64,000 nt of DNA from contig CM030335.1 in assembly GCA_017654855.1 (NCBI GenBank), forward strand, positions 1,240,001-1,304,000. Direction: 5' to 3'. The notes below the pieces were generated by a model. That model ran no database searches, had not been told where the DNA came from, and saw nothing but the letters and a program-made list of their open reading frames with translations. Positions 26,702 to 61,767 of this stretch are shown in pieces. A program made the position numbers and the translations under genes. Every line of letters begins with the position of its first letter. The first letter of the stretch is position 1. This stretch comes from Podospora anserina (Eukaryota).

Positions 26702-28312
26702 ATTAACTATGCGAGATATTTCTGTATATTGTAATAATGAATTAGCAACATTTTCTTTCATTAATCTTATATATCTTTAAAAGTTTTACTTTCTTGTCTA
26801 GCTTAATTGAAGATTGAAACTTTACATTTGATTAAACTAATTCAAATTTTTATAATATTGCTGATTCTTTAATAACTTGGAAATCATTATAAATCTCTTT
26901 AAGCTAATCTCTATTTAACTATGAGTCTGAAGCTAAAATATAAGGAAACTACTAATATAAATCTCATTAAAAGTAATTATTAATAACTAGGCCTTTAACT
27001 ATTGATGCAACATAATTTTTAACTTATACAGGTTTCCTAACTTCTAAAACGTAAAAACTTTAATTTTTAATATAAAATGATATTTGATATAATGAAGTAT
27101 AATTATATAATAAATGATATGTTGTTTCTACTATTTAATGATTTATTATATTAATAGCTTTTTAATAAGAAACATATAATACTACTCATTGAAATATTCT
27201 AACACTTTACTACTTGTTTTTAAAATTACCATTTTCATAACAAGCAAACCTAATATTCTCCTCTTTTATATTATACCCCGGCTTTTTGTTTCTTGAACAC
27301 TATTCATTAATATTAAGATATGATTTGTAAAGGTTTAACTAACTAGGAGCCTACAAAAAAGGAGCCACTTTATAAAGTAAGATATTTTAGGGCTATAAAT
27401 ATATTATAATTAATGTTTTAGATATCAACAGTAATTTCTATATATTTATCTTTCTATTATTACTAGATTGTCACAGTCAAGCTAACGGGCAGGGTGGACC
27501 GTGTGCGGGGTACGACACGCACAGCCTATCGCTAGTAGAACTGATCAGGACGGGAATGGCCTCACCTATATGATCATTGCCAAGAGTCAATAATCTAGCG
27601 CGGGATTATTGCTAAAGGTTAATAATCCAGGGCAGAATCATTACTAAAGGTTAATAATTTAGGCGATTACTAGGTCTACATATACGGAGAAACTGGATGG
27701 TACAAATAAATAGTTCCTTAATATATAATATAAATTATAATCGTTAATATCTAAACTATTATAATTACAACAAGCTATTTATTATATACTACTTAATTAT
27801 ATTAAACTATGTGACGAACCCGTATCCAGAACCTCTGAAAAGGATACTGGTTAATAGCACTTCTAAATAATCCTAGTTTGGTACAGCTAAATAATATACA
27901 ACAAGTAGCTTATCTTAATTATAATAGTTAAGATACTAACGATTATAACTTATATTACATACTATGAAACTATTTATCTATACTAGCTAGTTTCTCCGTA
28001 TATATAAACCTAGGGACCGTGGACCGTTAATTTATAAACGGTCATCAGTTTACTCCTGATTAGCCGATACTAGACCATGGACCGTGAGCCCCGCCGCAAT
28101 CCCCGGTCCCTATTTATTAGTCTATTCTATTTACTTAAATCGTAAGTCCCGCTCCGTCGCCCGGTTTAGTCCTAATTAATTTCTTATAGCCTTACTATTT
28201 TTTAAAACTGTAATATATACTCCCTTTCCAGGCTGAAGTTCTCACGGCTAAGTTTTTATTTTTATTAATAATATTATAAGTTTTTCTTTTTTACTTTTTT
28301 TTACTTTTTATT

Positions 28313-28967
28313 ATATTTAACTATATATAGAAACGTTATTATAAAATTGAAGAATTTTTTCTTTTACCTTGTAAATCGTTTACTATAATTCTACTATAAT
28401 ACTTTATTCTATCTACTTTACCGCCGGAATCCTTTATATTATAACCTCTAAACTTTTATAATATTTTAAATATATACGTGATAAGATTCTATATTATAAG
28501 TTTAATATTAACACCGCCTCTAACTATATTTTTCCGTCTTTTTCTACCGCAATTTATTACTCTATAGTAACCTGAGCAATAGAAAAGTAAAATAGATTCG
28601 AACGTAAAGAGTAAATAAAAGCTTAAAGATTAACTTTTAAAATTAATTATTAAATTTATTCGGGTAAAATAAATATATTACTTTCTCCGTACTTGCGACA
28701 AGCGTTTTTTTTCGCGGGATATCTAGGAGGAAGATACTTAAGTAGCGTAGTCCGTAATTATAGTATTATTTAATTCTTTACCGGGTACTCCTACGCGGCC
28801 GGACGGCGCCTGAAATATTAGCCTGTAATCTTCTTACGTTCCGGACCTTTCTTTAAGCTTTAACTAACCTTCCGACCTTTCCTTCGATCTTAATATAGCC
28901 GGTTTCTTCCTTCCTACCTATATAAGGCACCGCTGGTAACGTACCTTTTATTGCTTAAAGTAATTAA
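28313..28967 (+). pseudogene. Antisense accessory ORF of element X: Zn2Cys6-like cluster, coiled coil, acidic/aromatic tail
   Basis: 28405-28497 reads Y-x2-Y-x6-Y-x8-Y-x2-Y-x6-YY (TAY = RIP product of TGY Cys); tail PDLSLSFN*PSDLSFDLNIAGFFLP; ends approximate. Confidence 0.7.
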
Positions 28968-29009
28968 AGTGTATAACGTTAACTATACTTAAATTCCTTT
29001 ATACTTTCC

Positions 29010-29083
29010 AACCTCGTAATATAATATATAATATATTAATTATTATATCGAAGGTATAGATAGGTTCGATTCCCGTCGAGGTT
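29010..29083 (+). ncRNA. tRNA-like element (antisense) in element X
   Basis: 74 nt; AACCTCG/CGAGGTT acceptor-like stem; intact B-box GGTTCGATTCC at 29063-29073; A-box position RIP-degraded. Confidence 0.6.
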
Positions 29084-32000
29084 CTCCGAATTTTAAGTTT
29101 ATAGAAACCCTTTCGTAAACTTAAATACATTCTTTTTAATTATCCTATTAATAATATATTTTCGAAATTTTTTATAGTAATTGAAGTACATGGTATTAAT
29201 TAAACCTAGGTTCCTTCTTTTTTTATTAACCTCGTAGTATAATCTATAATACGTCGTTCACTCAATTAAAAGCGTAAATTCGATTCCTATCGAAGTTTTA
29301 TATGTAAATATTGGTTTTTTATTCAAATTATTTTCGGTATTACTAGTAAAAGTCTTTCTATTTATTGAAATAATTAATATTCATTTCCAGTTTCTATAAA
29401 CTATTTATAACAGAATATTTTAATTAATTAACTAAATATTTTTATTTATCTTTATTAAATTATAAAATTAACATTTTTTATATCGGGGTTTTTTGTCGTT
29501 TTTCGATACTTTTGACGTATTAATTTTATTTACCGGTAATACGGATTTTAAAAGTAAAAAATAAAAAGTATATAACCTTAAATATATTATATTAAATAGC
29601 TTGAATTGAAATACCGTTTCCGATATCTTTCATTTAACCTTAAAAATCTTATTTTTTTATAATTTTTTTTTTACTAAATCTCTTAATATAAATATTATAT
29701 ATAGAAAGGAATATTATATCTCTCCCTTTAAAGCCAGGTCCCTCGAGTTTTTTAGTATTATAATATTTCCGTATCTTTTTCTTTATAAACTCTAATTCAT
29801 TTTAAACTTCCCGTAAAATATATATAATGTATTTACTTTAACCTTAATCCTAAATACTCTAACGTTAAGTCCCTACGATAAGTCTACTTTATATTTAAAA
29901 TTTACGAAAAATAATGTAACTTTATTTATTTTTCCTAATAACATATTATATATTGATTATATTATAAATACTAATTTAACTGAATACGTTTACTCGAAAT
30001 TAATATCATTCCGTAAATACTGTTCTATAATTTAATTAAACCGTTCCGTTTCATTATTTATTTAAAGGTAATGAACCGAAAATACTTTACTTATTATCCT
30101 TAACCTCGTTATTAATGCTTTTTAAAAATTTTAATATAAACATGGTATCGAGGTTTATGATAATTTCCTTTCATTATGTATATATGATTATAATATACCG
30201 TAATATTATATCCGTTAATTCCTTTACCGATTAAATTTTCTTATAAAGTAAAAAGTATGTTTCTTTAGTAAATCTATCAATTATTATTACTTATCTCTGT
30301 ATTTAACGTTAGTTACTATATTTTTAGATTTTAATAATTATTAATAAAGTTTATAGTAATTAAACTCTAAGATTGTTCCGCCATTAATAATAATTTTAAA
30401 AATCTAAAAGGCTTATACTTTATAATCCTTATTTTTTTATACGTATATAGTAGTACAAATAAATAACCTTTTTAGCGTTATTTTTAATTCTTAATTAATT
30501 AAAGTATTATTTAAATGTTTCTAGATTCTTTATAATACTTATATATTTTTCAAGTTTCGACCCGTAAATTTTTATTATTAATATTATTTTATTATTAACT
30601 TTACATACGTTTGATTTTTATACTATAGTTTTCTTTAATTACTTTTTTCACATATTTTATAATTTTAACCTTTTTTATTAATGTTACTTTATGATATTAT
30701 TATTTAATTTCCTTTAATAATTGTCAAAAATATTTTCTTTATAATATAATATATAATACTTTATTTACGGTTAAAGCAAATATTAAAAAATATCTTTTAA
30801 CGTTTCCTTAAGTGATAATGGTAATTTCTTAAATATATTTTTATAACAATTAGCTCTCTGGTTATATACGTTTGCCCTAATATTCTCCGAATCTTTTTTA
30901 TCATTAATTTAAAAATTAAATTCCAAAAGAGATTTTAATTAATATATTTACCATACGTTAAAAGTCTTTATAATAATTAAGTATCGTAGGTTCTAATAAT
31001 TTATATAGACCTATACTGTATAATTAATATTATTAAAGTGTAGCCTTTACTTTTCGAGCTTTTCGATAATAATAAATGTTTTTTTCTTATAAACTAAATA
31101 GCTTTAACGTACCCCCTTTAATTCTTTTTAAAAAGAATTATCGGGTATAACTTTTTATTCATTATTTTATTAACTTAATCATTTACCGATCGTATAATTT
31201 AATATATTAACCTCGACTTTGAATCGTCAATTAGGGTTTAGTAATTTAAGAATTAAAGTTTTTAATAAATTTTTTAAGCTCTTGAAAGACTTACTTTTCT
31301 TCTTACCCCCACCGGAACTCTATATTCTTTTTGATCAAATAATGAAATAATTACGAAATCCCCGCGTACCCCCGGATAAATATCTAATAAAAATTTATAA
31401 ACTTTAATTCTTTTAACATATATCTATAATTATAATATGAATTAATTTTGATTCATTATAATTCTTTTAAATTTCATATAAATCTCTCTTAATAATACTA
31501 AATATTTAAATATACTATTATTTATATATAAAATTCGCTCTTTTCTTATTATTCAAAAGTCTAGCTCCGTATAGCGTATTAGATATTTTCCGTACGTATC
31601 GCCTATATTTCTTTCAAGTACATAAGTAAATAAAACTATTATTAAATAATATATCATTATTTTATTAAGGTATATCCGAAGTATATAAATAGTAAAAAGT
31701 ACAAATATTATTAATGATATTAATTAACTGGAATAGTATTATAAAGTATTTAATACAATTATAAGGTGATTGAAATATTATTTTTTATTTATTTCTTTTT
31801 TTAGTTTATATATAAATATATTTAACACGTATATTTAAATATATCAAACATTCTGTTTTAACTAATTAACTCAGTAATATAAATATCAATAATGATAAGT
31901 AAATATTTTCTACTATTTTATTATTTCATTAATACTAATTTATATATAGTTTTAGATTACTATCCTTCTTCGTTACGAAAAATATAGGGTATCTTACTAG

Positions 32001-34997
32001 CGATATAGATTCCTTAATATATCCTTTCTTTAAAATTTATTTCAATTTTTCTATAACTCTTTATTTTACTTATCTTTAATTTCATAAATCTAAAATAACT
32101 ATAGTTTAATTCATTTTTTTAATTAAATTTCGTAGTCTTATAGTCCTCGCTTTAAAAGTCCCTTTGAATAATTAGCTGTAAAAATTCAATATTTTCGGTA
32201 TTCTACCGGTACTGCTTTTTTCTCGCTTTTTTCGATACTATTATAGTAAGTATATTTACTAACATTCGATATTTTTACTAACGTTAATAATCTTATTCCT
32301 TCAATTTTACTGCCTATGTTAATAAAGTATATTATTATTTTTTATGTTCTTTACGGTAATACTATAACGGGTATTTATTTATTTTATCCTTTAATCTATG
32401 TATATTCCTAATCTCTTATCGTTAATTAATTACTTTCAAAATTCTTTTGGTTGTAAGTAGCTACTATCCTTCTAATTAATATCCAAATTATGATTTTGAT
32501 ACTATAATTACCTTAAAAGTTTATCTTTTGAGGGTCCTATATTTATAATATTAAATATAATTAAAATTATTTTCTTTTAAATATAATATTTAGAAATAAT
32601 ATTTTTCCAGAAATTTTTTATATTGGCTATAGTCTTGATATAACGATTTATTTTTTATAGTATTTTAGTTTTAATATACGAATTATAATAAAATTGAATT
32701 TGTTTCTATGCTTTTATTTAATAATATTACCGCTTAAATATTTCTTAATATGTTGCAACGTGGAGATATTGGTTTTTTTTGCTTTCTCCTTATATGATAA
32801 AAATTTTATTAACGAATATTAAGTCGTTATCCTATACTTTCGCTTTACGCCGATATTTTGATAATATTATTTATAATATATTAAATGATATTAGGTTGCG
32901 CGAAGGGCAACGAGTCGTTTTTTAAGCGATTATATTATTTAAAAGCGTTTTTTTACTCTGGGTTATTTCATAATATAAAATTTTTTAATTACCCCTTTTT
33001 AATTTGCTTTTATTTTCCGTTTTTAGATTTTTTAATATTTTATTATATTTACATTTGATAGCGGTGCTTTTTTCAATTATCTCCGTAACCCATTTTATTT
33101 GATAATATTGATTAACTTTCTTTTGTTAATGTACTACGTAGTCCGGGCCTAAGTACTATTTTAATACCGCTCCTTCCTAAAAAAACTATATTATCGTCCG
33201 TATTCTTACTATCCGTATACTCCGAAGTAGTAGCTCGTATACTTTAAAGCTAACTATATTACCAGAAACCTATTCTTTAATTTAACCGGGTCCTGAACCT
33301 TCTATAAGAAATAGTTATTTAGGTTTTCGTACGCTCTTTCCTGTTTAACTATAATCTTTTTAACCGGCTATGGTTTACCCTCTTTAGTTACTTCACGTAC
33401 CGGCTAATAACTATATAGTAATTTACCTTAAGAATACTTTATATATTAATATATAATATATTAAAATTAAATGTACCCTTGGGTATTCCGGATATGAAAA
33501 TAAATTTATATTACAATTTTTCTTAAGGTATATACTATATAAAGATAAGTATATCCCCTAACCGTTTCGAGATTTTAACATTCATAACTTTCTTATTTTC
33601 TTTATATTCCTTTTTATACTTTTATATATAAGCTTTATAAATTATTCTTACGAAATAATAATTTTATATTTATTGTGTTACTTCTTTAGTATCGTTTACA
33701 GGGTAGGTCCTCTTTACTATATAAGGTTATTATTTTTAATAATTTCCGTAGCAATTTCTATAGTAATTTATATTAATCCATTTTATATACCTATGTTTAA
33801 ATCTTTCTCTTCATACTCTGCTTTTAGCCTTTCTATTACTTTTCGTAACTTTTAAATTTTTTCTTCATTCGGTATATTAACTAAAATCTTTCTCGAAACT
33901 TACTATTTTACTTTAATAATACCCGATAGTTATGACTTTATAATCCTTAGTCCTTTTAATATAATAATTCATATGATTTCTTTTTTTATTCGAATCGTTT
34001 AAATACCTTATAATCTTTTTTAAAGTCATTTACTTTACTATAATTAAAATACCCAAAGTTATTCCTACCTTAACACCGGCTTTATGGTTTTCATTATTAA
34101 ATAGCGTTACCATTTATTTGTTTTAAATATATAATACTAAAGTAATTAATATTAAATCATTCCAACTTTCGTTTATTATTAAATTAATTATTAAAGTATT
34201 CTTTATTATTATTACCATAGTAACTTTAATTATTTTTTTTCTTCCGTATAACGTTAAATTTAATGATCGTTAATTGACATAATTATAGTAATATATTTAT
34301 TAATAATATTAAGCTTCAACTCTTTATATAATTTATTCTTTACCTTTTCTTTAAAGTTATCATAAAAGGTTATATTAGTCCCTCATTATTAATAGTATTA
34401 TATAAGCTATCGATTTTAAACAAAACTATATAATTAACCGTTGTACAGGTTTAGCATAGGTTTATAAAAAACCTTTATATATATTTTACCTTATTATATT
34501 TTTTAAATTTAACTTTAAAGATTATAACAACTTTCCAAATATTCTATAGTAATTCTTTTTCAGTCCTTTAACTCTTTTTTATAATAAATATTTAGGATAG
34601 ATTGGATTTATATGAAAGCTTTATCTTGAAGTTTAATAAACGCGAACATTATTTTCAATTCTTCGTTAATAAATTAATTTAGGTATTAACGAAAATAGGG
34701 TTTAAATTAAATTAAGAATTCTTTAAGATTTATATTTCCATCCTTATAGTATTTTAATACCGGAAAGTTAGGTATTACTTTAGGTACGGCCGAAATGATA
34801 ATAATTTATTTTTATTATTATTAAACTTTATTCTCGAGCTCGTGAAAGCGTTATTTTATAATAATAAAAGTAGGTTTAGTACTGGTAGAAGGTCCCTCGT
34901 TACCTAGGCTAGGCAGGACGCCTCCTATCTTAACGTTCTAAGATCCGGCTATAGTAATGAAAAAACGTTTTTAATTTATCTATAATAGAGTCAACGT

Positions 34998-35009
34998 CAG
35001 TATATAATA
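34998..35009 (-). promoter_or_regulatory. Self-priming-type primer binding site of element X
   Basis: TATTATATACTG directly after the 5' LTR is the RIP-altered reverse complement of the LTR core CAGTATGCAATA; Y has GTTGTATACT at 35428-35437. Confidence 0.65.
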
Positions 35010-38000
35010 TATAACGAACCCCTATCTAAAACCTCTAAAAGGAATATTAATTAAAAGTACGTTTAAATAATCCTAGTTCGGTATAATTAAATGGAATATG
35101 ATAAATAGTTTATATTAATTATAATAATTAAACCACTAACGATTATAATATATATTATATACTACGGAACTATTTATTTACACTAGCTAGGTCCTCCGTA
35201 TATATAGACCTAGGGACCGTGGACCGTTGACTTATAGACGGTCCTCGGTCCACTCCTGATTGGCCGATGCTGGACCGTGGACCGTGAGCCCCGCTCGATC
35301 GCCCGGTCCAGTCCTGATTGGTTCCTTGTGGCCCTACTGTCTTCCACAACCGTGACAAACTAGGATTATTTAAAAGTACCTTTAATTAATATCCCTTTTA
35401 AAGGTTCTAGATAGGGGTTTATTATACGTTGTATACTTACTTTAACTCTATTATAGTTAATCTAAAAGCGTTTTTTTATTACTATAGCCGCACTTAATAA
35501 TATTGAAATAAGAAATATCCCGCTTGATTTAAGTAACGAAGGACCTTCCACTATAATAATTAGATCTAATATTTACGTTTGCGAAATGGTTTATTAAACG
35601 CGTTAAAGACCTTAAAAGCAATATTTAGTGGATCCGGGATTAAATTACTATTATAATAATTATACTTGAATTGATACCTAAATTTCCAGTACTAAAGTAT
35701 TTATTTTAAAGGAAAAAAAGTAAAGTGTAAAAGGTTCTTAATTTAGTTTAAAACTTATTTTCGTTATTACTTAAATTAAGTTATTAACGAAATATTAAAA
35801 GTGATTTTCGTAGCAATTAGGGTTAAAGATAGAGCTTTTATATAATTGGAACTTATTTTTAACCACTATTATAAAGAGGAGGTGGAAAAGTAGGAAAAGA
35901 TTAGGGTTTAATACTATTATATTTTTTTAAACTAAGTTTAAAGAAATATTCAAGAAACATAGTAAAATAAAAATTATATAGGAAAGGCTCGTAAACCTAT
36001 ATTAAATACGTTTAATAGTAAATTATATAGCTGTGTTTAAAATCGATAATTTACGTAATATTATTAACGATAAGGGATTAGAACAGCTTTTTGATAATCG
36101 TTTTAAGGAAAAGGTAAAGGATAGGTTATATAAGAAATCGAGGCAGGATACTATCCATTAATATATTACTATAGTTATATAAATCGATGATCGGTAATTT
36201 TAATATTATATAAAAAAAGTAATTATAAAAATTAGTATAGCAGTAATGATGTTAACAATAAATATAAATGGTAATGCTTTAATATTAATTACTCCGGTAT
36301 TATTTATACAGGACTAATAGAAGTCGACGCTATATAGTAATAGAAGCTGTAAGGCCGGGATTAAAGTAAAGGTAACTTTATATAATTTGATTATAGTAAA
36401 GTAAAATATTTTGAACAGGATTATAATGTATTTAAACAATTCAGTAAAAAGAAATGAATTACGGTAATTACTATATTAAAAGGACCGAGGGTTATAAAGC
36501 TTATAATTATTAGGTACTAAAAGTAGTTTTAAATTTGAAGGAAGATTTTAATTAATATAGTAGATAAAAGAAAGCAGAGGTCCAGAAGGTACGGGAAGTA
36601 ATAGAAAAGATAAAGGTAAAGTATAAGAAAAGAGATTTTTCAATATATAAATTTTTAAGGAAATTACTACGGAGGTTATTAGAGACGATAGCCCTACATA
36701 ATAGTAAGGACTTACTTAGTAAATCATACTAAAGAAATAATACGAATCATAGAAAATAAATATTATAGCTCTAAAAACTTGAATATAAGAGATAAAAGGA
36801 ATTTTAAAAAACATACATAAGGTTATTAATATTAAAATTGTAAAACAAGGTACCGAAATAAAGTTAATTTTATTACAGTTCGTACATCAAATTAAAAGAC
36901 AATTATCAAAAAAGGAATAGATTATAATATAAGAACTATTTCCGATGTAAAAGGTTCATAGAGAAATGTTATTTGTAAATATTATAGCCGAAAGGAAAAT
37001 AATTCTGATTATATCTAATATTTCTAATATAGAACCTTCGAAAGACAGAATCCTAACGTCACTAGAATATAACAACTATCCTCTAAATATTAAAGGGATA
37101 GTAGCTATTTATAATTATGACAACCTTAAAAGCATTTAATTAACAATAGAACATTGAAAGTACGTATAAAGCAAAGTGTCGGATAAGTACCCTTTACAGT
37201 ACTACCGTAAAGAACCTGAAAAATAATAATATATGTTGTGAACATAAGCGGTAAAATTAAAGAAATATGGTTAACGACGTTAGTAAAGATATCGGAGGGT
37301 AATATATATATTTATTATAATAGAATAGAGAAAGGTGAGAAAAAGGTGGTACTAATAGAACATCGAGGATATTTAGTTTTTACGGTTAAATGTTTAAAGG
37401 GACTTTTAAAGCAGGGACCGTAGGAATACGAAATTAAGTTAAAAGAAGGCATTAAACTTTGACTATTTATGGTCTATTATATTAACGATAAGTAAAGTAA
37501 TGAATTACGGAAATACCCAATAAAAGATTTAAAGAAAGAATATACTATGGAGCTTATGTCGTTCATAAAATACCTTATATTTTTAGTGCCGAAGAAAAAC
37601 GGTAGTTTACGATTATATATAGATCATCATTAATTAAATAACGAAACGGTAAAAAATATGTACCCGCGACTATTAATACTTAAATTATAAAATCAATTAA
37701 TTAGGGCACGATACTTTATATATTTCAAAATATATACTAAGTACGCTTATATATAAATTAAGAAAAAGAACAAATAAACAATGGCGTTTTATATACCTTA
37801 TAATTATTTTAAATATTTTGTAATAGTATTCGAATTACTTAATATATTTATAACGTTTCGATTTTTTATTAATTATATAATTCCAAAATACTTTACTAGA
37901 ATAATAATATATTATTTTAATAACGGTTTTATTTATTCCTATACATTAAAAGAATATAAGTAATATATACGAAAGATAAAAAACGCGTTATATAAAACCG

Positions 38001-38298
38001 GATTTTCAATTAATAAAGAAAAAAACGAGTTTATATATAAAAAATAATATATTTAAAGTATTTAATATCATTAATTAAAGTATAAATAAAACTTAAGAAA
38101 ATCATAGTAATTAAGGATTAGCCTATACTATAATTATCAATATATAATAAAGAACTTTTAAGATTCGTAAATTTTTATTGAATATTTATCCGGAAATATA
38201 TAGGGATCGCGTAATTACTTAACTATTTGCCTCAAAAAACGTAGAGTTCCGGTAAAAGTAGGAAAAGGAGTAGGCCTTTTAAGAACTAAAAGAAGCTA

Positions 38299-40161
38299 AC
38301 GTGCGTGATAAGCGAGCCGAACAGACAAGCGAGCCGAACACTTTCCAACGCAGCGCAACCCTCCAACTTCTTTCACCAACTTTACCACCAATTCGCTATA
38401 AATTCACTTCCAACCGAATCTCGAATTATTTTAGCCCTCGAAGCTATCAAAAACGACCCAAATATTAGTCTTCGACGCGCAGCTAAGCTTTATAACGTAC
38501 CAATTACAACTCTCTATGACCGACGCGCTGGCCGGCTTGCACGACGCGATATGCCAGCCAACTCACGCAAGTTTACCGATTTGGAAGAGAAAACGATTGT
38601 TTAATATATTATTGAGCTATGTACACGCGTATTCCATCCTCGGCGTTCGTATGTAGAAGATATAGCCAATCGATTACTATGCGAACGCGACGCGCCTCCT
38701 GTTGGCGTACGATAGGCTTATAACTTCGTTAAACGCTAGCTAGAACTTCGGACGCGTTTTACGCGTAAATATAATTATTAGAGGGCCAAATGCGAGGATC
38801 TAAAGGTTATTAGCGAGTAGTTTACTTTCGTACGGAATACTAAGGCTAAGTACGGTATCGTGGATAACGATATTTATAATTTCGACGAGACTAGGTTTAT
38901 AATAAGTATTATTTTTACGGGTATAGTAGTTATAACTTCTAATAGCCGTAATAAGGCGAAACTAGCCTAGCCTAGTAACCGCGAATAGGTAATAGTAATC
39001 TAAAGAGTTAATACCCTCGGCTAAACTATCCCTCTTATTATTATTTTAATTACGTAATATTACTTTATTAACTAATATACTAAGTATAATTTACTATTTA
39101 CTTAGCGTATTATAATTATCGATAATAATTAGATTATTAATATAATAAGTTTAAATTAAATTAAATACTTCGATTATTATATAGCGTCCTATATAAAAGG
39201 TAAATACCGGTTATTAATCCTCGATAGTTACGAAAGTTATTACTCGACCGAATTTAAGTGTTATTACTAGTAAAATAATATTATTACGCTCTACATACCT
39301 CTATATTCTTTCTACCTCCTCCAGCTACTTAATATTAATTGCTTTAGGCCGCTAAAATAGGCGTACGGTCGCCAGATCGAGGACTTAATACGTATATATA
39401 TTAACTATATAAGTAAGCTCGAGTTCCTCTATACTTTCCGCGAAACTTTTTTCGCCTCTATAATAGAGAAGAATATATAGAGTAGCTTTATAGGTGCTAG
39501 CCTTATACCGTACGATCTAGAGAGGATACTTTTTAAGCTAAATATAAAGCTTCGTACGCTAATACCTCTAAACTTACGGCCCGGTACTATATAACCTTAG
39601 GTCTCCCAGATACTATATAACCCTCGAGAAACTAACTCACAGTTAACGCTCATTAAAACTCGCATTACTAACCATCAAAATAGCTCCCCGACTTCAATAT
39701 TGGCTACTATGGACCAGCTTACTATAAGTATAATGGCTGTGATGCACTAGGTGGCTCTCCTTCGTGCAAAGAACACTACACTCCGTAAGGCTAACGAGGC
39801 ACTAAGTAAGCGCCGGAGAGCCAAAAAAAACACGTATGCGGCTTGGAGGGTCACTTACTGTACAAGAGGCACAGGATCTACTGGATCAGAAGGCTGTAGG
39901 TGAGCAGGTAATCCAGGAAGATCGACAAAGTGGTGGTGGTGCAAGGGAGTCACGTCCGAAGATTCAGTGCTGTGGCGTGTGCGGTAAGCCAGGCCATAAT
40001 GCACGCACCTGCAAGGAGGCTGCAGAATCATCTGATTTATCTGTTTCTGGTTCAATTATTGTGGTTTCCTAGTATTGTGGTTGTGTAATTGAAGATAGTT
40101 GTAGTGGGGTGGTGGAAAGTGTTCGGCTCGCTTGTCTGTTCGGCTCGCTTATCATGCACGT
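38299..40161 (+). mobile_element. Fot1/Pot2-type DNA transposon inserted in pol of element Y
   Basis: TA TSDs; TIRs ACGTGC(G/A)TGATAAGCGAGCCGAACAGACAAGCGAGCCGAACACTTTCC; transposase ~38398-40072 with SLRRAAKLYNVPITTL HTH and CGVCGKPGHNARTC knuckle; many RIP stops. Confidence 0.95.
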
Positions 40162-42178: not shown

Positions 42179-42249
42179 AACCTCGACGGGAATCAAATCT
42201 ATACCTTTAACGTAATAATCAACGTACTATATATTATACTATTAAAATT
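42179..42249 (-). ncRNA. tRNA-like element (antisense) in element Y
   Basis: Minus strand TAGTATAAT..TATTACG..AGATTTGATTCCCGTCGAGGTT, homologous to the X copy, B-box RIP-damaged. Confidence 0.5.
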
Positions 42250-42289
42250 AAGAAATACCTAGGGACTATTATATAATTAACGTTATATA

Positions 42290-42881
42290 TTAACTTCCCT
42301 AAGTAGTTAGTAGAGCCTCGTCGGTAATATTTTAACTAGCTAGGAAGAAAAGACCGGCCACATTGAAATCTAAAAGAAAGTCGGAAGGCCAGTTTAAATT
42401 TAAAAAAGGATCTAGAAATAAAAAGTCGGAACTGAGGGTCATAGAAGACACCGCAGTAAAATAATCCCGAAGAAAAACGGAACGAATAAACTCCTTTTTA
42501 CATTTAGTTTTTTCTAACTCCTCTACACTATCGAAACCACAAAAGACGGCTCACGATATTTGCTCTAACTGAGCTTTTTTTAAATAACGACAACGACGGA
42601 CCCTAACGTAAGTTACTTCGGTGAGTTCCTCGGCCTTTTTTAATTTAGCTTCGACGGTATCGTACTAAAAGATAATTTTAAAAAGCTAATCAAAAGGTTT
42701 ACATAAAGCGTCGTAATAAAGTAAAGTCTCCACGAATATATTTATCGTAATATAAAAAATTAAAAGAGAAAAGGACGTAAAAAAGATTATAGGAAATATA
42801 TACGGAGTAAAATAAAGGTATCGTAAATAAATCATCGAGGTTTTTTCTATGAAGCTTTATCGAGCAAACGCTTTTAAATAT
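42290..42881 (-). pseudogene. Antisense accessory ORF of element Y (~197 codons)
   Basis: Y-x2-Y-x6-Y-x9-Y-x2-Y, then a frameshift; VEAKLKKAEELTEVTYVRVRRCRYLKKAQLEQIS*AVFCGFDSVEELEK; tail DPFLNLNWPSDFLLDFNVAGLFF. Confidence 0.75.
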
Positions 42882-45800: not shown

Positions 45801-46179
45801 TATTTATTCTATATTGCGGAACTATCTATTTATACCAGGCAGTTCCTCCGTATATATAGATTTACTAATATTCGAAATTCTTAACTTTTAACAATAATGC
45901 CTTTCTAGAATATTAACTTTTAATAATAATCCCGCACTAAATTATTAACTGTTAATAATAATCCTATAAGTAAAGCCATTCTCTATCCTAATTAAAATTA
46001 TTAATAACTAACTATACGCATTATATTCCGTATACGGTCCGTCCTACGTATAAATATAGTTATAATATAATACCCTTCTTTTTAGGTTAAAGTCCCGTCG
46101 ACTTAAGTCCTAAAATAACCGTTTATTACCTATCTTTCTCTTCCTATAAATATTCCGCTTACCTTTCTTTATTTTTTAC

Positions 46180-46793
46180 GATATTTAACTATATAAATAA
46201 ATAAAATATTTTAAACTACTTAATCCCTAAAGCTTTATAGAGATTTCGTTTCGTAAGTCGACTAGAATATCTTCGTTTTATTCTGTATATACTTTTTACA
46301 ATTTTTCCTACGTCCTCTTTTATTTTATTTTTTTATATTGCTATAATTATATTTACTAAGCCTTTCCTTATTATAATACCCTAAGCGTATAAATAAGTTA
46401 GTCGTTTAAATTATTCTTTAACATAATATTATTTAAATTTAATAAAAATTAAATAAAGAAATGATAAAGGTAACCTATATTAGAGTTCGTCGGTTTTATT
46501 AAAAAAAGGTTTTATTAAAGCGAATATCGCGAAATGTTTTTTATAGTTTCGATAACGTAAAGAAACTAAAAAGGGCTCAGCGCGAACAGTACTCCGCTCG
46601 TTCCGCTTTTCCTCGGGATCGTGCCGTAATAAAGCTTTTTATTACTATTCCTTCCGACTTCTGTTTCCTAAATTCTTCTCTAAACCTTAATCAATCTTCC
46701 GATCTTTCTTTATCTCCTAATATAGCCGCTCCTTCCTTCCTAACCAGTTAAGGTGTTACTAATAATACGACTCTAGCTTTTTATAGTAAATAA
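46180..46793 (+). pseudogene. Antisense accessory ORF of element W
   Basis: 46279-46374 reads Y-x2-Y-x6-Y-x9-C-x2-Y-x6-YY, with the fourth Cys still TGC (46339-46341); KVTYIRVRRF..SFDNVKKLKRAQREQ follows. Confidence 0.7.
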
Positions 46794-46832
46794 TATGCAA
46801 TATTAATTTATGTCGGTCCCTATGTATTTATT

Positions 46833-46900
46833 AATTTTTTAGTGCAATATATACTACCTGCTATTACGTTAGAAGCGCGGCTTTAATTTCCGTCGAGGAT
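46833..46900 (+). ncRNA. Degraded tRNA-like element in element W
   Basis: TAGTGCAAT..CTATTACG..GCGCGGCTTTAATTTCCGTCGAGG at the homologous position. Confidence 0.45.
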
Positions 46901-47901
46901 TTTTTATATTTAGATTGATAAATATGATCCATAATTCAAGCGCAGATATTTTTATCTCTATTGGTTTTAATCGGTTTAAATATTATTAATAGAATTCCTT
47001 TTATTTATCAAGGTAATTTAAATTTACCGTTATTTTTAACGAGTTATTTATACTTAAGTAACCTAATTAACTATTTAAACATTCCAACTAACCTTTATTC
47101 AATTATAAATTTAGTATTTCCTCTATATTATATTTCGTTTCTTCGTCTTCTACTATTTCCTTAATATTAACTTTACTTACCGGTACTATGGGTTTTAAAA
47201 GTAAAATATAAAGGGCATATAACCCTAAATATACTATACTAAGTAGCTCTAGTTCGAATGTTATTTCCGATATCTTTCTCTTAACTTAAACTAAACCTAC
47301 TTTTTTATAATTTAACTTTTTATTAAGTCTTTTAATACGGAAATTACATATAGAAAAGAATACTATATCCTTCCTTCCAATGTAAAGTCCCTCGAGCTTT
47401 TTAATATTATAGTATTCCATATCCTTTCTCCTATAAACTCTAATCTTTCTTTAAACTTTCACCAAAATATGTATATTTTACTTCCTTTAATACAAACCCT
47501 AGGTACCTTTATATGAGGTCCTTACCGTAGATTTATTTTATATTTTAAGTTCACTAAAAATAACGTACCTTTCGTTATTTTTATTAGTAATGTATTTAGG
47601 TTAATTATACTATAAGTAATACTTTAGTTTAATTATTTTAATGAAAATTAATATATTCCCGTAAACATTATTTTATAATTTAATTAGGCTGTTCCGTTGA
47701 ACTATTTTTTAAGGATAGTAAACCGAAAACGCTTCACTTACCCCTTAACCTCATTATTAACGCTCTTGAAAACTTTAAGATAAATTTAATATTACGGTTC
47801 GTAAGAAACTTTTTTACTTATAAATATATTACGAAAATATAATATAATACTATAACCATTTACTATTTTTCCAACTAAGTCTTTTTGTAAGGTAAAAGTA
47901 A

Positions 47902-48107: not shown

Positions 48108-48150
48108 TAACCTAAAATCAATAATTAGGTTTATGTTTGCTCCAACGTTA

Positions 48151-48555
48151 TGTGACGAACTTCTCTCCAGAACCTCTGAAAGGGGTACTAGTTGAAGGCA
48201 CTTCTGAATAATTCTGGTTTGGTACAGCTAAACAATGTACAACAAATGGCTTGTCTCAAGCACAATAGCTAAGATACTAACGATTGCGACTTGAATTGCA
48301 TACTGCGGAACTGTCTATCTACACCAGCCAGTTCCTCCGTATATATAGACCTTGGGACCGTGGACCGTTGACCTACAGACGGTCCTCGGTCCACTCCTGA
48401 TTGGCCGATGCTGGACCGTGGACCGTGAGCCCCGCCGCGGTTCCCGGTCCCCATCTCATTGGTCCGTTCTGTCCACCTGGACCGTGAGCCCCGCTCGATC
48501 GCCCAGTCCAGTCCTGATGGTTTCTTGTGGCCCCACTGTCTTCCAAACCGTGACA
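48151..48555 (-). mobile_element. Solo LTR, U3 type d
   Basis: TG..CA termini, exact TSD CGTTA. Confidence 0.93.
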
Positions 48556-48560
48556 CGTTA

Positions 48561-51500: not shown

Positions 51501-53809
51501 GAGTTGTGGTGACGTTATTTATTTATTTTATTAGTTTATTTACATTTAATAAATATAATCGCTTTTAAATTATACTATATTAAAAGGTATTTAAATAGTA
51601 ACAATAATAATTAAAGGTACGAAAACGAATTTAATTTCATTATAGTGTATATATTCAACTAGGATATTATAAGAAGAGAGAAGGAATAAATCGTTATATA
51701 AAGACTATTTTTAAGGTAAAACCCTTATAAAGAAATGTTATTTTTAAATATTATAGTTAAAAGGAAAATAACTTTAATTATATCTAATATTACAAATCAA
51801 GACCCTCAAAAACTATAATTTTAGGGTAATTATGATATTAGAAACATATGTTAAATACTAATTAGAGGGATAGTAATTATTTACGATTAAAAGAGGGTTA
51901 AAAGTATTTAAGGAACGATAGGAAATAACGAGGACGTATAAAGTAAAGTATAGAATAAATACCCTCTACCGTACTACCGTAAAAAGCTTATGAAATAATA
52001 GTATAATTTATAGATAAAAGCGGGTAAAATCGAAGAAGTAAACTTAATAACGTTAGTAATAATATCGGGGGTTAATAAATATCTTCACTGTAATAATATA
52101 GAGAAAGGCGAGAAAAAGGTGGTACTAATAAAAGATCGAGGATATTTAGCTTTTATAATTAAATTTTTAGAGGGATTTTAAAAGTGAAGACCGTAAAATC
52201 ACGAAAATAAATTAAAAGAAAGAGTTAAACTATAGTTATTTAATACTCATTATAATAATAAAATGTAATGTAAAAGGTTACGCAAATAGTTAAACGAAAT
52301 TTTAAATAAAAGATATATTAAGGGGTTTATATTACTGGTAAAATACCGTTCATTTTCCGTATCCAAAAAGAAACGGTAATTTACTATTATATATAAATTA
52401 TTATTAATTGAATAATAAAACGGTAAAAAATCATTACTTACCATCATGAATATTGAAATTAAGGAATTCATTAATTAAAGCGTAATAGCTCATATATTTA
52501 AATATATTCACTACACATATTTAAATATAAATTAATAATAAAAATAAATAAGAAATAACGTTTTAAATACCTTATAAATATTTCGAATATTTCGTAGTAT
52601 ACTTCGGGTTAATTAATACGGCCATAACGTCGAAATCTTACGTTAATTATATAATCCGGAAATATTCTAATAAAATAATAATATATTATTTGGATAATAT
52701 ATTTATCTATTTATATACTTTAAAGGAATATAACTAATATATACGAAAGATATTCCACGCGCTATACGGAGCTAGACTTTTAATTATGAAGGAAAAAAGC
52801 GAATCTTACGTCCAAAAAATAGTATATTTATGATATTTGATATTATTAAGAGAGGTTTGGAAAAATTTAAGAGAATTACGGTAACTAAGGATTGGTTTAT
52901 AATATAATTATAAATATACGTTATGGAACTTTTACGGTTTATAAGGTTCTATGGGATATTTATTTAAAGGTATATTACAATAATATAGTTATTTAATTAC
53001 TTCATTAAGAAAGATATAAAGTTCCGGTAAAGATAGGAAGAAAAGTAAGCCTTTTAGAAATTAAAGGAAGTTATATTAAAAGGCCCGGTATTTATATTAT
53101 TAAACTTTGATCAATCATTTAAGGTCGAGGTTAGTATATTAGATTACACGAGTAGTTAATAATTAAATCACCGAAATAACGTTAGCAAGTTATATTTAAT
53201 AGCTTTTCTTTCGAAAGAACCAAGGAAATACGTTAAAACTCTTTAATTTATAACAAAGAACTACTTAGTATGATCAAAATATTTGAGGAATAGATGTTAT
53301 ATTTTACTATTACTAATTATAAAGTATAGGTTTATACGGATTATAAGAACTTATAATACTTCATCGTTGTAAAGGCTTTTAACGTACGTAGTAGTTATAT
53401 TTTCTTTAAAAGTTTAACTTCTAAATTAACTATAAAAAGGGTTCGGAGAACGTTGGGGTAAACAAACGTATTTTACCGGCCAGCCGATTACTATAAAAAC
53501 ATACCTAAGAAATTACAATTATTACTCAAATTACTTTTAAAACGTACTTTTAAGTATTTATTTTAACCGTAAATAAAATTTTACGTAGTATATTAAAAGA
53601 AAATTACTTTTAATAAGTATTGAAGAAAGTGAAATGATAATTTTACGATGTAATATTGATAGAAAAAATTAGAACTATAAAGCATTTAAAAAGATAATTA
53701 AAAAAGATTATAGTATAAAAATAAGCCTACCTAAAGCTAAATAATAAAATAATATTAATAATAGAAATTTACGGATCAAAGTTCGGAGAATATATTAGTA
53801 TTATAAAGA

Positions 53810-54213
53810 TATAACGAACCCCTATCCAGAACCTCTGAAAAAGACACTGGTTAAAGGCACTTCTGAACAATCCCGGTTCGGTACAGCTAAACAGTGTACA
53901 ACAATGGCTTGCCTCAGTCACAACATCTAAAATACCACGATTGTGACTTATATTGCATACTACGGAACTGTCTATCGATACTAGCTAGTTCCTCTGTATA
54001 TATAGACCTTGGGACCGTGGACCGTTGACTTACAGACGGTCCTCGGTCCACTCCTGATTGGCCGATACTGGACCGTGGACCGTGAGCTCCGCCGCGGTCC
54101 CCGGTCCCCATCTTATTGGTCCGTTTGCCTACCTGGACCGTGAGCCCCGCTCAATCGCGCGGTCCAGTCCTGATTGGTCCGTCGCGGCCCCACTGTCTTC
54201 CAGAACCGTGACA
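53810..54213 (-). mobile_element. Solo LTR, U3 type d, inserted near the integrase N-terminus of Z
   Basis: Exact TSD AAAGA; near-identical to 48151-48555. Confidence 0.93.
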
Positions 54214-55458
54214 AAAGACTATAGAAAAAAAAATAATACTTTAATTTACTAAAGATTAAGCACATGTAAAAAAAATGAAAGGTTATAAAAGATAAGGTTT
54301 ATAAATCTCTAAAGCTACTAATAATAGCGGAACGAAAATAAAGTTTAATTACGATAGACTTTACTATTAAATTATTATAATTGAAAAAATGTAATAACCG
54401 GCGTTAAATATAATCATATTCTAATAATAATCAATAAGTTTACTTAGTAAACGTGCTTTTTACCTTTTAATGAAAATTAGTTTGTAAAATAATTAACGGA
54501 TAGAATGCTATTATAAATTATAATAATATATATATATCAATAAAGGAGCACATGACGGACCGTGATATTAAATTCGTATTAAAATTTTAAAAAATTCTAT
54601 TAATAGAGTTAAGGATAATGAATAAAGCGTTTTCGGCTCATTACCTCTACATTAATTGTTAGACGGAACTGTTTAATAAAACTGTAAAATAATATTCACG
54701 GAATCACATTAACTTTAACTAAACCGATTAAACTAACTTATTATTTACGGTATTATTAATATATAATATATTATTAATAGAGACGATTAAAGTTATACTA
54801 TTTTCCGTACACTTTAAATACAGAGTAAACTTAAGATAGGGACCCAATATAGTGGTTTGTAGGGTTAGGCTTAAAGTAAGTAAATTATATATATTTTATA
54901 GTAAATTTAAGGAAAAATTAAAGTTTATAAGGAGAGGATACGAAAATACTATAATATTCAAACAATCGAGGGACCTTACCTTAAGGAGAGGGATATAATA
55001 TCCCTTCCTATATATAATTTATATATTACAAAACTTGGCAAGAAGCTAAACTATTGGAAAGCAAGCTTATTAAAAGTTAAAAGAAAAATATCGGAAATGA
55101 TATTTACATCAAAACTATTTAATATAATATTTTATAGTAATATACCTTTTATATTTAATCTGCAGAACATGTATTAATGGTAGATAAAGTTAATATAAAG
55201 GAAGTAGCGGAGAATGAAAAAAAAGAAATATAATATAATAAAAAGCATATTAGATTTACGATTTAATAAAACTTAATTAAAATATTCAACTAATCAACTA
55301 GAATATTTAATTATTAATAGTTTATAGGAACTAACGGTAACCCCTAATTTTCTAAATAAATGGATAGAACTTTACCGATAATATTTAAACGGACTAAAAT
55401 AATATAAATAAATTAAATATATTAAAAATTTTAAAAATTAAAATCTTAATACTCTAAA

Positions 55459-55527
55459 AACCTTGACGGGAATCGAACCCTCGCCTTTATCGTAGTGGCC
55501 GGTATATTACGTTTTATACTATAAAGC
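55459..55527 (-). ncRNA. tRNA-like element (antisense) in element Z
   Basis: Minus strand GCTTTATAGTATAAAACGTAATATACCGGCCACTACGATAAAGGCGAGGGTTCGATTCCCGTCAAGGTT; intact B-box at 55469-55479. Confidence 0.6.
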
Positions 55528-55579
55528 TAATAAAAATACAGAAAATACAGGTATAATTAACGCTATATACCTTATTTAC

Positions 55580-56210
55580 TTTAAAAATTCAAAATATATT
55601 ACTAGCGGTACCTTAATTAATTAAGAAAAAACGACTGGGTACATTTGGGTTTAAGCAAAGGTCGGAAGGCTAATTAAGGTTTAGAGAACGATTTAGGAAT
55701 GAAAAGTCAGAAGGGACGGTAACGGAAAACTCCGCTATAGGACGGGCCCGAGTGAAGGCGAAACAAATAAACTACTCTCTACGTTTAACTTCTTTTTAAT
55801 TTTTCTATATTATTAAGCTTATAAGAGACGGTATGAAATATTTTATTAAATTAAAGGCTTTTTTACTTTTATAAATCAGCGACTTTATTTATAAAACTAA
55901 ATCATTTAGCCTTTACCTTTTTACATTAAAGTTAAGACGGTTATGATATATAATAATTTTACAGAGGTAGAAATACATAAACCGCTAGCCCTTAAAAAAA
56001 GCTAATTAAAAGCAATATAAAATGAGTGGCGAGAGGAATCGGAAAAGAAAAGTTCGTAAGGAAGTAACTAGCGTTTATACTAAGTATAACAAATAATTAT
56101 AATAATAAAATTAAATAAAACAATATTAAAGAAAGCATTATGATAAATTATTTTAAAATAAGTTACTTTTGAGCGGTCAAAAACCCGGTTGAAAATATTA
56201 TAAAAATCAA
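55580..56210 (-). pseudogene. Antisense accessory ORF of element Z
   Basis: YT*YKR*LLPYELFFSDSSRHSFYIA, read as de-RIP C-x2-C-x6-C-x9-(C)-x2-C; conserved PSDL tail near 55660; ends approximate. Confidence 0.6.
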
Positions 56211-59200
56211 AGAAGCAAGAAAATGAATTTCCTATATTGATAATAAAAATAAAGATTAAGTTATAGGGACTTCGGCCTAGAGAAGGAATATTATATTACG
56301 GTTTTAAAAAAACGGGGACGTTAGAATCAATAAGATTAAAGTGGGCGGATAAGTAACGCCTATAGGGTAGGAAATAGTACGGGTCAAGGGATTAAGGATT
56401 TAGGAGATAGGCCTGTGGATCTATAGATTTAGAGCTAGATTTAAGGATTTAAAGTTTAGAAACTAGATATAGGCAATTTAGGAAATAAAAAAGTAGATTT
56501 AAGTATAAAGGTATTTAGAGCCCTAGGTCTATATATACGAAGGAACTAGCTAATATAAATAAATAGTTCCTTAATATATAATTATAAGTTACAATCATTA
56601 GTATTTGAATTATTATAATCGAGATAAGCCGTTTGTTATGTACTGTTTACCTATACCGAACTAAGATTGTTTAGAAGTACTTTCAACCAGTATCCCTTTT
56701 AGAGGTTCTGGATAGGAGTTTGTCATAAGAAGCTTAAATATTAGGACTTGTCGTATATTGTAAATGGCAGGCTAGATTCCCCACCTTAAATTAGAATATA
56801 GTATCTAAACTCTTTGAATATTATAAATAATAACTTTTTTTATACATCTTTAAGTTATGTTAAGTTACCTATAAATTTTAATACTATTAATACTATTACT
56901 ATTAACACATAGCCTTATTGCTATCTATCTTTATAAGTAATTATTTAAAATTAAAAACTCTATATTTGATTAATTTCTATAATTGTATATTCCATTTCCT
57001 GAAAGCTAATATATATATATATTTTAATAGTTATTTATTGTTTTACTAGATTATCTTAATTTTTTCGTTTTCTCCCTTGTATTTACCTCTATTAAATCTA
57101 TTACTCGGTTAGTTGATCCAAAAAGATTTCGTATTAAACAATAAACCTTTTTTGACCGTTTTTTGATATATTTTTCACTTTTAAACTTAAAATGTATATA
57201 ATTCTCATAAAGAAAACAAGGCGTCTTAAATTTGTTTTCACTTAGCTTATTAATATTGAATGTAGAAGTGTTCCGAATTTGGAATCTTCACACATTTTCT
57301 TTTGACTCGTTATTGATAGTAATACTTGAATAAATCAGGGATTATTCATAAATCATTTTTTTACAAAGATGAATAAATATTTTTTTTCTGATAATAAGAA
57401 ATAATAATATATAAGAAGTTATATATTAAGTGTTATTACTTATAAACTCTTTTAATAATTAAATTCGATGATATAAGATACATATATAGTAATGAAGTGC
57501 ATTATAGAGAGATAATATAAAAATAGATAAACGATATTATTTATATTACTTATTCATAAATAAATAAGTAGTAAGGGAGCTAGTCAGAAATTTATAGGTG
57601 ACTAGTAGTATATAAAGTATTTAAAAGGGTAAAATCTGTTATTCAATTATAAATTTATAGAGTTGAAAAATAAAGGGTAATAAATTACAATTTTATAATA
57701 TATATATAGCTTATTCTTTATAGTAAAAAGGCTTTAATTATTAAAATATTCCATGTCAGGAATTAACGTTTAAAAAATATTTTTTATTAATCTTTTTCTA
57801 TCGGTTTAAAACTATAAATAGTATACTTTAGTAATCTGTAGTAGCTAAATTATAATTATCTCCTACTTTAACTTTTACTTAATATTAGGTAAATAGTTTG
57901 TTATTTCATAGTTATATATAATTAATCAAATTCTGAGGAGTTTTACTATTTAGGAGATATTTAACAAAATAAAAGATATTTTAATAGAAATATATTATAA
58001 CTAAATTTCTTCATAAATATAATTATTATACTATTAAATTAGATTTGTATATAAATATAATATATACAAATAAAACTTTTTTAAATGTATTTTATATTAA
58101 AGAAAGAAATATTTTATTTTAAGTAAAAACAATGATGTTTTAATTGTTGAAAAATTAGTGTAGAAGATTACTTAATAAGTTATTGAATCAATAATACTAA
58201 AAGGCTTAATATTTAAAAACTAGTTTATTTACCTTACTTATTTTAATTAATTAATAAAGTAATAGCTCATAAATATCAAAGGTATTTCCATTGAATAGTT
58301 TAATAATCTAACTAATATAATAGAGTTATTAAACTAAGTAATAAATAATGATTAATAAGTCTTTTGAAGTAAGTTAGGATTTATACTTATTAAAAGTCCT
58401 AAACAATTATACATTTCTTTTTATAAGTCTTAAAGTAGAATAAATTAAATAAGTATTATATATATAAGTCGACATATTTTATATTATAACATATAAATAT
58501 ATTTATAATCTATTTCAATTAACTATTATAAGTTGATTAATTTGAAAGATATACAAATTGAATCCTAATTGATATAGAAATGTTTTATGTATATATTAAA
58601 TTCCTTTAAATAGATTAATAATTCATTAAACTTATTTTGAATACGAATAATAAATAAGATTATAATTATGAACTAATATATTTATTGTATTAACTCAATT
58701 ATACCAACTATTTATTTAACAAGATTGTTAAAATTAACATCATACTTTAATAATTTAAAAGTTAAGATGAAAAAGTTTAAGGGCTAAAATAACGCTAAAC
58801 GGTATTATGATAGGCTTTTAAAAAATATATAAAAATATGTTTCTATTCTTTAAAAAACTAATGAAAAGAATAACATATTAAATAAATATTAAAGGAGTAT
58901 AATATTAATATAATCTTACTTCTCTTTAAATAGTAAAGAAAATTTACTATTTATTATAAAGACCTAGAAAATACAACCCTTAATAGTAATCGGTATAGTC
59001 TATTGAAAGTAAAGAAAACTTTAATTAAAGTATTTAATAATAACAAAATACTACAGGAAAAGAAATGATAAAGCTAATACTTTATAATATATATTATAAT
59101 TATTAAAATATAGACTTATAAAGTAATTAAATATAGTAAGTGGAGTTGAAAGTATATGTTTTAGAAACCTTAAATCATTTAATTTCTTTTTACAACCCTT

Positions 59201-61733: not shown

Positions 61734-61767
61734 TGAAAATATTAACTTTCTTGTGGTTCTATTATAC

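Follow-up and report, generated by a model that had tools for sequence, protein, structure and literature searches.

Introduction

This study concerns an antisense gene carried by retrotransposons of the crapaud type in a 64,000-nucleotide (nt) stretch of Podospora anserina DNA (contig CM030335.1 of assembly GCA_017654855.1, positions 1,240,001 to 1,304,000, forward strand; hereafter the window). As described in the main text of PMC10787394, crapaud is a family of Ty3 chromodomain long terminal repeat (LTR) retrotransposons of the Podospora anserina species complex, with 14 U3 subfamilies. The legend of Figure 2 of that article gives the element two open reading frames (ORFs), one for GAG and the other for reverse transcriptase, RNase H, integrase and chromodomain. 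Promoter selection and recombination are discussed there for the crapaud U3, the cause of the 14-way split being left open, and possible transcription-factor sites in U3 are mentioned in 10.64898/2025.12.02.690432. Neither main text mentions an antisense gene or says that the variable block reaches into the internal region; the supplements of both may bear on this. The copies in the window share with crapaud LTRs of about 400 bp with a variable U3 and a conserved R-U5, and they are elements of about 7.4 kb that are common, nested and heavily affected by repeat-induced point mutation (RIP). Named relatives of the antisense ORF were found only in Podospora. The difference from crapaud, in the published two-ORF form of that figure legend, is the antisense gene itself.

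Antisense ORFs located between pol and the 3′ LTR have been reported for plant Ty3 elements, among them gene23 of Grande and those of RIRE2 and Retand (PMC7264820, PMC11963269). In the account given by PMC7264820, their function is unknown and they have no clear similarity to known proteins, some of their products are nuclear, and they have a promoter of their own; an antisense promoter of the human T-cell leukaemia virus (HTLV) is also mentioned. As far as the plant ORFs are described in these sources, the Podospora ORF has the same place and orientation in its element, but it is fungal and has a recognisable DNA-binding-type architecture. The literature searched contained no zinc cluster protein encoded by a transposon.

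A second parallel is provided by the trans-regulators of retroviruses. HBZ of HTLV-1 is an antisense basic leucine zipper (bZIP) protein expressed from the 3′ LTR that forms dimers, and foamy-virus Tas and HTLV Tax act on U3. All three are, similarly, element-encoded regulators acting on or made from their own LTR. They differ in belonging to animal retroviruses and in having other protein folds, and we know of no family of interchangeable regulator/U3 pairs described for those viruses.

An antisense zinc cluster gene lies between pol and the 3′ LTR

Self-BLAST and alignments delimited four element copies retaining a 3′ end, called e1 to e4 (Table 1). In 4/4 of them an antisense ORF is found between pol and the 3′ LTR, with its start 146–200 nt from the LTR edge. 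An earlier note, made from the sequence of the window, had singled out four short strings, ISYNLF, TFYNFS, FTAGIL and KR*LLP, as the segment between the second and third Cys of a Gal4-type zinc cluster. All four are located where the note had placed them, 180–250 nt inside the 3′ LTR edge and antisense to their element.

Differences among copies are mostly transitions, which is the mark of RIP, and nearly all the ‘Cys’ of the window copies are in fact literal Tyr. Positions compatible with a RIP-mutated Cys number 6/6 in e1, 6/6 in e3 (one of them a literal Cys), 5/6 in e2, where a 1-nt frameshift follows, and 4/6 in e4. By itself, the Zn2Cys6 spacing written with Tyr or Cys is within chance: three non-simple matches were found in 42.5 kb read in six frames, against 1.3 expected in shuffles. 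The antisense frames of type c copies (e2, e3) are unusually open: of two segments of e2 that were picked after seeing them, one of 71 codons has 0 stops and one of 110 codons has 1; there is no excess openness in e1 and e4. Transversion periodicity failed as a coding test even on pol and was thus uninformative. Sequencing reads mapped at 80% likeness provided no readable type c copy less affected by RIP, and no RNA run was among those listed for the locus. The LTR core was matched by dozens of contigs, and read depth over the zinc cluster part of e2 equalled that of the locus’s own contig in every run. The nearest feature clusters in the Atlas were unnamed Ascomycota proteins at 0.92–0.93, a value reached by chance 4–10 times in 100 and hence at most a lead.

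Because the spacing and the window alone were not decisive, the four antisense tails were aligned, with stops as X, and the resulting profile (A2) was searched among 1.84 billion representative proteins. Of the six matches, five were repeat proteins and the sixth was P0004 (155 amino acids, E 2.3e-4), a protein that starts with C-x2-C-x6-C-x8-C-x2-C-x6-C and ends in the tail motif of the window copies. A word search from P0004 then gave six proteins, five of them hypothetical proteins distributed over four Podospora species, the other belonging to a Logan assembly; in UniRef, two of the six are called ‘Zn(2)-C6 fungal-type domain’. The full form is P0007, which has 171 amino acids and the same Cys arrangement as P0004, so that both have the Zn(II)2Cys6 spacing C-x2-C-x6-C-x(5-12)-C-x2-C-x(6-8)-C. 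Other relatives, P0008, P0010 and P0011, are truncated at the N-terminus or miss part of the cluster. A word search with the tail of e2 found no relative among longer proteins, the length range that it covered, and two metagenome scans and one viral scan contained neither a relative of the ORF nor the LTR core.

P0007 was aligned to e1 with tolerance for frameshifts, a codon being called RIP-compatible when C-to-T or G-to-A changes alone suffice to derive it from some codon for the P0007 residue (chance 0.17 per codon). This was the case for 151 of the 171 codons, with two frameshifts and a longer linker in e1. Compatibility extends over the whole protein: cluster (28/33), coil (53/57), middle part (36/40) and tail (34/41). 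The de-RIP reading of the earlier note is therefore right: Tyr stands for a RIPped Cys, and the intact homologues have Cys at these positions. The stops ending the tails of e2, e3 and e4 correspond, according to P0009, to RIPped Gln codons. We considered that the ORF might be an artefact of AT-rich Tyr codons and rejected this on the basis of the intact P0004 and P0007 and of the e1 codon match. The antisense zinc cluster gene is almost certainly real and part of the element, and it is apparently undescribed for crapaud.

RIP does not account for all differences between copies. Of the 22 codons in the two Cys lobes, 19 in e1, 11 in e2, 12 in e3 and 7 in e4 are RIP-compatible with the type d protein, so that more than RIP separates the types.

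A type-specific block spans the N-terminal half of the gene, the spacer and U3

The LTRs of the window are 349–433 nt long. To compare their U3, we took as dissimilarity the share of alignment columns that hold a transversion or a gap, so that RIP transitions do not count. In type c, the 5′ LTR of e2, its 3′ LTR and the LTR of e3 differ mutually by 0.05–0.11. In type d, the 3′ LTR of e1 and two solo LTRs, H and I, differ by 0.02–0.03. The 5′ LTR of e1 stands at 0.29–0.30 from this group, the difference being one missing 58-nt unit; the number of U3 repeats thus changes within a single element. The U3 of e4 (type e) is at 0.28–0.30 from type d, and the remaining cross-type pairs are at 0.26–0.46, compared to 0.36 for shuffled pairs. 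From the TATA box to the LTR end, dissimilarity is 0.03–0.17 for all pairs. Including LTRs A, B and K, there are six mutually unalignable U3 types in the window. These LTRs have what characterizes crapaud: a length of about 400 bp, discrete subfamilies of the 5′ half (U3) and a conserved R-U5. The association of loop strings with U3 types given in the earlier note was found again with these dissimilarities: type c has ISYNLF and TFYNFS, type d has FTAGIL and type e has KR*LLP.

Upstream of the LTR, the copies were compared by RIP-aware pairwise profiles and BLAST end points. In pol every pair aligns, with 0–3 gap columns and about 4–14 transversions per 100, and transversion distances are alike across all pairs (about 6–9 per 100). 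The alignment of e2 with e3 continues to the LTR end. That of e2 or e3 with e4 breaks down at a distance of about 800 nt from the LTR end and resumes at the TATA box; for e1 and the others the distance is about 1000 nt, and the alignment resumes at the same point. The breakdown stretch has 17–33 gap columns per 100 and contains one island of similarity, the polypurine tract with the LTR tip. U3, the spacer preceding the start codon and, within the gene, cluster and linker are type-specific, whereas the types have part of the coil in common. As had been noticed before, all four copies can be aligned in the tail, in a tRNA-like piece, in pol and in the LTR core. The block measures about 0.8–1 kb; its conserved neighbours are tail, tRNA-like piece and pol on one side and TATA-R-U5 on the other.

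The N-terminal half of the gene, the spacer and U3 very probably constitute one cassette. The earlier note had assigned the ORF to a swappable cassette with U3. The contiguity of the type-specific part agrees with this proposal; the tail, common to all copies, lies outside. Diversification is also not particular to the Cys2–Cys3 loop, as had been suggested, since the whole N-terminal half differs among types.

Judged by pol, e2 and e3 resemble each other no more than they resemble the remaining copies, so the block has a separate history. During reverse transcription, the 3′ U3 templates both daughter LTRs. Because both take their U3 from the 3′ end of the RNA, the gene half and the adjacent U3 are inherited as a unit. 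The separate history of the block fits the little association between LTR subfamily and internal-region tree described in the main text of PMC10787394; this tree finding neither refutes nor supports a coupling that involves a piece of roughly 0.4 kb.

The protein has a Gal4-like architecture

The intact protein, of about 170 amino acids, consists of a six-Cys cluster (residues 3–32), a coil and an acidic/hydrophobic C-terminal tail. The coil and acidic tail announced in the earlier note can be recognised in the P0007 sequence and in its AlphaFold2 model. This model, made from a six-sequence alignment, has two short helices at the Cys pairs (predicted local distance difference test, pLDDT, 74–82), a long helix at residues 37–104 (pLDDT 90–99) and a disordered tail. 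When the model was compared to the PDB with Foldseek, 24/24 matches at E≤10 were Zn2Cys6 DNA-binding domains (best E 0.64), including those of Leu3, Put3, Gal4, Pho7, Ppr1 and Hap1, with root-mean-square deviations of 2.2–2.4 Å over 30–35 columns. The tail is kept in 4/4 window copies and in 5/5 relatives long enough to reach it, and it might act as an activation region, which it resembles.

A homodimer was modelled with residues 1–110. Its score was 0.57 whereas the best of three controls scored 0.00; runs agreed in at least 87% of contacts and pLDDT in the partner was at least 77. The model thus reached the mark used for calling a dimer. That mark had been reached by 21/30 solved one-chain pairs and by 0/23 solved single chains; for eukaryotes the corresponding figures were 17/29 and 0/30, only 1/7 pairs reaching it when no older solved relative existed. 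Unlike the calibration set, our homodimer model carried Zn. The model lends support to dimerisation of the predicted protein but is no proof of it.

Compared to Gal4-type Zn(II)2Cys6 proteins (PF00172), the protein has the same six-Cys spacing and an acidic C-terminal region; in the models, two short helices are predicted at the Cys pairs, and the helix modelled as a dimer directly follows the cluster. It differs by its small size, by lacking the fungal-specific middle domain and by being encoded by a mobile element, besides other differences weighed below. The predicted architecture is Gal4-like and regulator-like.

Each U3 type with low RIP carries its own repeats

A repeat array is present within about 130 nt upstream of the TATA box in each U3 type with low RIP, and every type has its own. 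Type d U3 (for instance LTR H) contains three copies of GGACCGTG and inverted ACGGTCC pairs. Type c, as read in the first part of the e2 5′ LTR (27479–27807), contains three tandem 32-nt units, each with the dyad GATYATTG-N8-CAATRATC. Types A, K and B each have distinct repeat units. Such arrays suggest sites that would suit a dimeric binder.

Several U3 types also contain CCAAT-type motifs such as AGCCAATCA. Finally, LTRs B (26246–26701) and K (61764–62187) are nearly identical from TATA box to end (0.04) and have unrelated U3 (0.32), which means that U3 exchange has taken place at the TATA boundary without R-U5 following.

Discussion

The best explanation of these data is that the elements are crapaud-type Ty3 LTR retrotransposons with a third gene, antisense, placed between the end of pol with its tRNA-like piece and the polypurine tract with the 3′ LTR. 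Taken together with the following mechanism, we give this reading a probability of about 0.4. The antisense transcript would start in or near the 3′ LTR. The encoded protein would dimerise and bind the type-specific repeat or dyad arrays of U3, and binding would stimulate transcription of the element, so that each subfamily would possess its own activator/operator pair. The parts of this reading are not equally secure. The chances that the protein regulates the LTR of its own element appear about even. A subfamily-specific pairing of protein and U3 is a more tentative proposal, less likely than not. It is likewise doubtful whether a subfamily amounts to a private, self-encoded activator/operator pair that is swapped as a cassette during reverse transcription, with competition for activators, or escape from them, splitting crapaud into its 14 U3 subfamilies.

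Several observations weigh against this reading. The cluster and the tail are out of frame with each other in all four window copies, and the intact P0004 and P0007 are gene predictions. The Pfam model Zn_clus (PF00172) gives 16.7 bits to P0004 and 16.2 to P0007, below the cut-off of 21, its best stretch placing residues 2–20 on model positions 18–36, that is the first lobe of the protein on the second lobe of the model; a sequence search of the PDB returned nothing meaningful (best E 0.34). In Zn2Cys6 proteins, basic residues of the Cys2–Cys3 loop contact CGG half-sites. In P0007 this loop, FTSGTP, is devoid of Lys and Arg, and a basic RRK is found between Cys5 and Cys6 instead, which makes it doubtful that the Cys2–Cys3 segment is the recognition loop, as the earlier note would have it. 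The type c repeat unit contains no CGG triplet, the usual Zn2Cys6 half-site. The contacts of the modelled dimer are antiparallel (i+j about 127, residues 37–93), so that the two Zn clusters would be at opposite ends; the coiled coil of Gal4 is parallel. As to the pairing, the sample consists of four copies and three types, the cluster of e4 being degenerate, and the intact relatives found are all of one type, none being of type c or e. Lastly, adjacent segments without homology across types are inseparable by homologous template switching, and hence will co-vary whatever the protein does.

This last point leads to what we regard as a serious alternative, although the odds are rather against it: a real gene whose N-terminal half co-varies with U3 for no other reason than that the two segments are adjacent and unalignable across types, crossovers by template switching and gene conversion being confined to the conserved flanks (pol/tail and R-U5). 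The protein would then act on a common target or on host genes, and U3 would diversify through sites for host factors. The contiguity of the block, the CCAAT-type motifs of several U3 types and the B/K exchange at the TATA boundary speak for this, as do the recombinant LTRs and homogenised internal regions reported in the main text of PMC10787394. Moreover, the basic Cys5–Cys6 loop (V/I-R-x-x-hydrophobic-P/L-C) is more conserved than the Cys2–Cys3 loop. On the other hand, the start position, the six Cys positions, the coil and the tail are kept across types. That this architecture is retained although the sequence has changed beyond RIP argues that the variable half is functional, and the presence of an own repeat array in every U3 type also speaks against linkage alone. 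A regulator of opposite sign, or one working at the RNA level, appears improbable. It could be a repressor or copy-number-control protein, for which HBZ, an antisense bZIP protein dampening transcription from the 5′ LTR, offers a precedent, or an antisense RNA forming double-stranded RNA (dsRNA) with the genomic RNA, a role for dsRNA being discussed in PMC7264820 for the antisense ORFs of plant elements. Against this, the conserved acidic/hydrophobic tail resembles an activation region and may be one, and a role of the RNA alone would not preserve the Cys spacing. Even less probable, to the point of being hardly credible, is that a fragment of a host zinc cluster gene was captured once and is decaying as a passenger without role for the element. 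The Pfam score under threshold and the truncated or incomplete P0008, P0010 and P0011 would agree with decay. Yet the gene is present in 4/4 copies of three deeply diverged types, at the same place and in the same orientation and with its architecture kept, and its relatives occur in at least four Podospora species.

For the split of U3 into 14 subfamilies, selection on promoter function was proposed in PMC10787394 with no binding factor at hand. The antisense gene is a concrete candidate for that factor, since the half of it that varies is physically joined to the U3 that varies. Pairing can be tested directly in existing genomes, which hold about 150 full copies in seven species. Among the antisense extra ORFs of LTR retrotransposons, the gene would be the first in which the architecture of a regulator can be recognised, and it would be a fungal counterpart to the retroviral trans-regulators. 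Matched pairs, if they exist, could serve as orthogonal promoter/activator parts. More generally, a RIP-aware reading can recover genes missed by annotation pipelines.

Other features of the window

AT-rich (GC 0.14–0.37), nested repeats of the RIP type occupy the window from about 21.5 kb up to the last position. Self-comparison and alignments revealed eleven copies of an LTR core of about 200 nt, with the TATA box at its start and ...TTCGTCACA at its end. Coordinates of the copies and of their antisense genes are collected in Table 1.

Table 1. Retrotransposon copies, antisense ORFs and associated features (positions in the window; strand relative to the window)
Feature	Positions	Strand	Remarks
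e1, full-length crapaud-type element	27808..35356	(-)	type d of the earlier note; nested inside the e2 5′ LTR
e1 3′ LTR	27808-28214		407 nt
e1 5′ LTR	35008-35356		349 nt; one 58-nt U3 unit fewer
e1 antisense zinc cluster ORF	28399..28964	(+)	start codon ATA; six Cys positions TAY; RIP stops; two frameshifts
e1 loop FTAGIL	28417-28434	(+)	
tRNA-like piece in e1	29228..29298	(+)	on the strand of the ORF, downstream of it; Rfam tRNA model RF00005, 24 bits against a gathering threshold of 29 (E 0.013, 601 nt searched)
e2 5′ LTR, first ~330 nt	27479..27807	(+)	type c U3, little RIP; separated from the remainder by the e1 insertion
e2, remainder	35358..43372	(+)	last ~70 nt of 5′ LTR, gag-pol, ORF, 3′ LTR (42968-43372)
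pogo-like DDE_1/HTH_psq insertion in e2 pol	about 38299-40160		
e2 antisense ORF	42293..42821	(-)	type c; zinc cluster part and tail in different frames
e2 loop ISYNLF	42780-42797	(-)	
e3, 3′ part only of a type c copy	45658..47897	(-)	3′ LTR 45658-46066
e3 antisense ORF	46267..46790 (end approximate)	(+)	type c; literal Cys (TGC) at the Cys4 position
e3 loop TFYNFS	46291-46308	(+)	
Solo LTR H	48149..48554	(-)	type d U3, little RIP
e4	about 51577..56727	(+)	type e of the earlier note; 3′ LTR 56295-56727; 5′-truncated or unrecognisable
Solo LTR I	53814..54212	(-)	type d; inserted in e4
e4 antisense ORF	55583..56100	(-)	His and Phe at Cys4 and Cys6
e4 loop KR*LLP	56059-56076	(-)	

The pol regions are heavily mutated, and Pfam gave only matches of the RT_RNaseH type, all under cut-off (23.9 and 22.3 bits in e2; RT_RNaseH_2 in e1 with 23.8 bits against a cut-off of 29.8). 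There was no Pfam match to a chromodomain in the RIPped e1 stretch; a chromodomain-like motif was read by eye only. With RIPped pol as query, one weak relative, P0012, was obtained. No recognisable 5′ part of e4 was found.

In addition to the tRNA-like piece of e1, a second tRNA-like core lies near position 29079 of the same element, as part of a duplication of about 200 nt, and the core motif is also found in e2 (at 42183) and e4 (at 55463). Rfam gave no tRNA match for the e2 stretch at E≤10, and neither ARAGORN nor Rfam at its gathering threshold found an RNA gene. The piece could be a signal for 3′-end processing of the antisense RNA or a captured tRNA gene.

A pogo-like DNA transposon is present in three RIPped copies (23028–24615, 38573–40164 and 63181–63986); in the second, which is the one inside e2, DDE_1 and HTH_psq exceed the Pfam cut-offs. 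Positions 60533–61900 (GC 0.14), which immediately precede solo LTR K, hold a long array of tandem repeats of about 9 nt, with 103 copies reported. Of LTR G (47905–48109) there remain the core and no more than about 30 nt of a U3 resembling type d, and unrelated AT-rich DNA upstream of this LTR abuts the truncated end of e3. Two other AT-rich stretches, 43373–45657 and 48555–51576, have no match elsewhere in the window.

The nest of crapaud-type elements extends over at least 42 kb (21500–64000). The nest may be centromeric or pericentromeric given this span, since crapaud is enriched in centromeric regions of 44–90 kb in these species, according to the main text of 10.64898/2025.12.02.690432.

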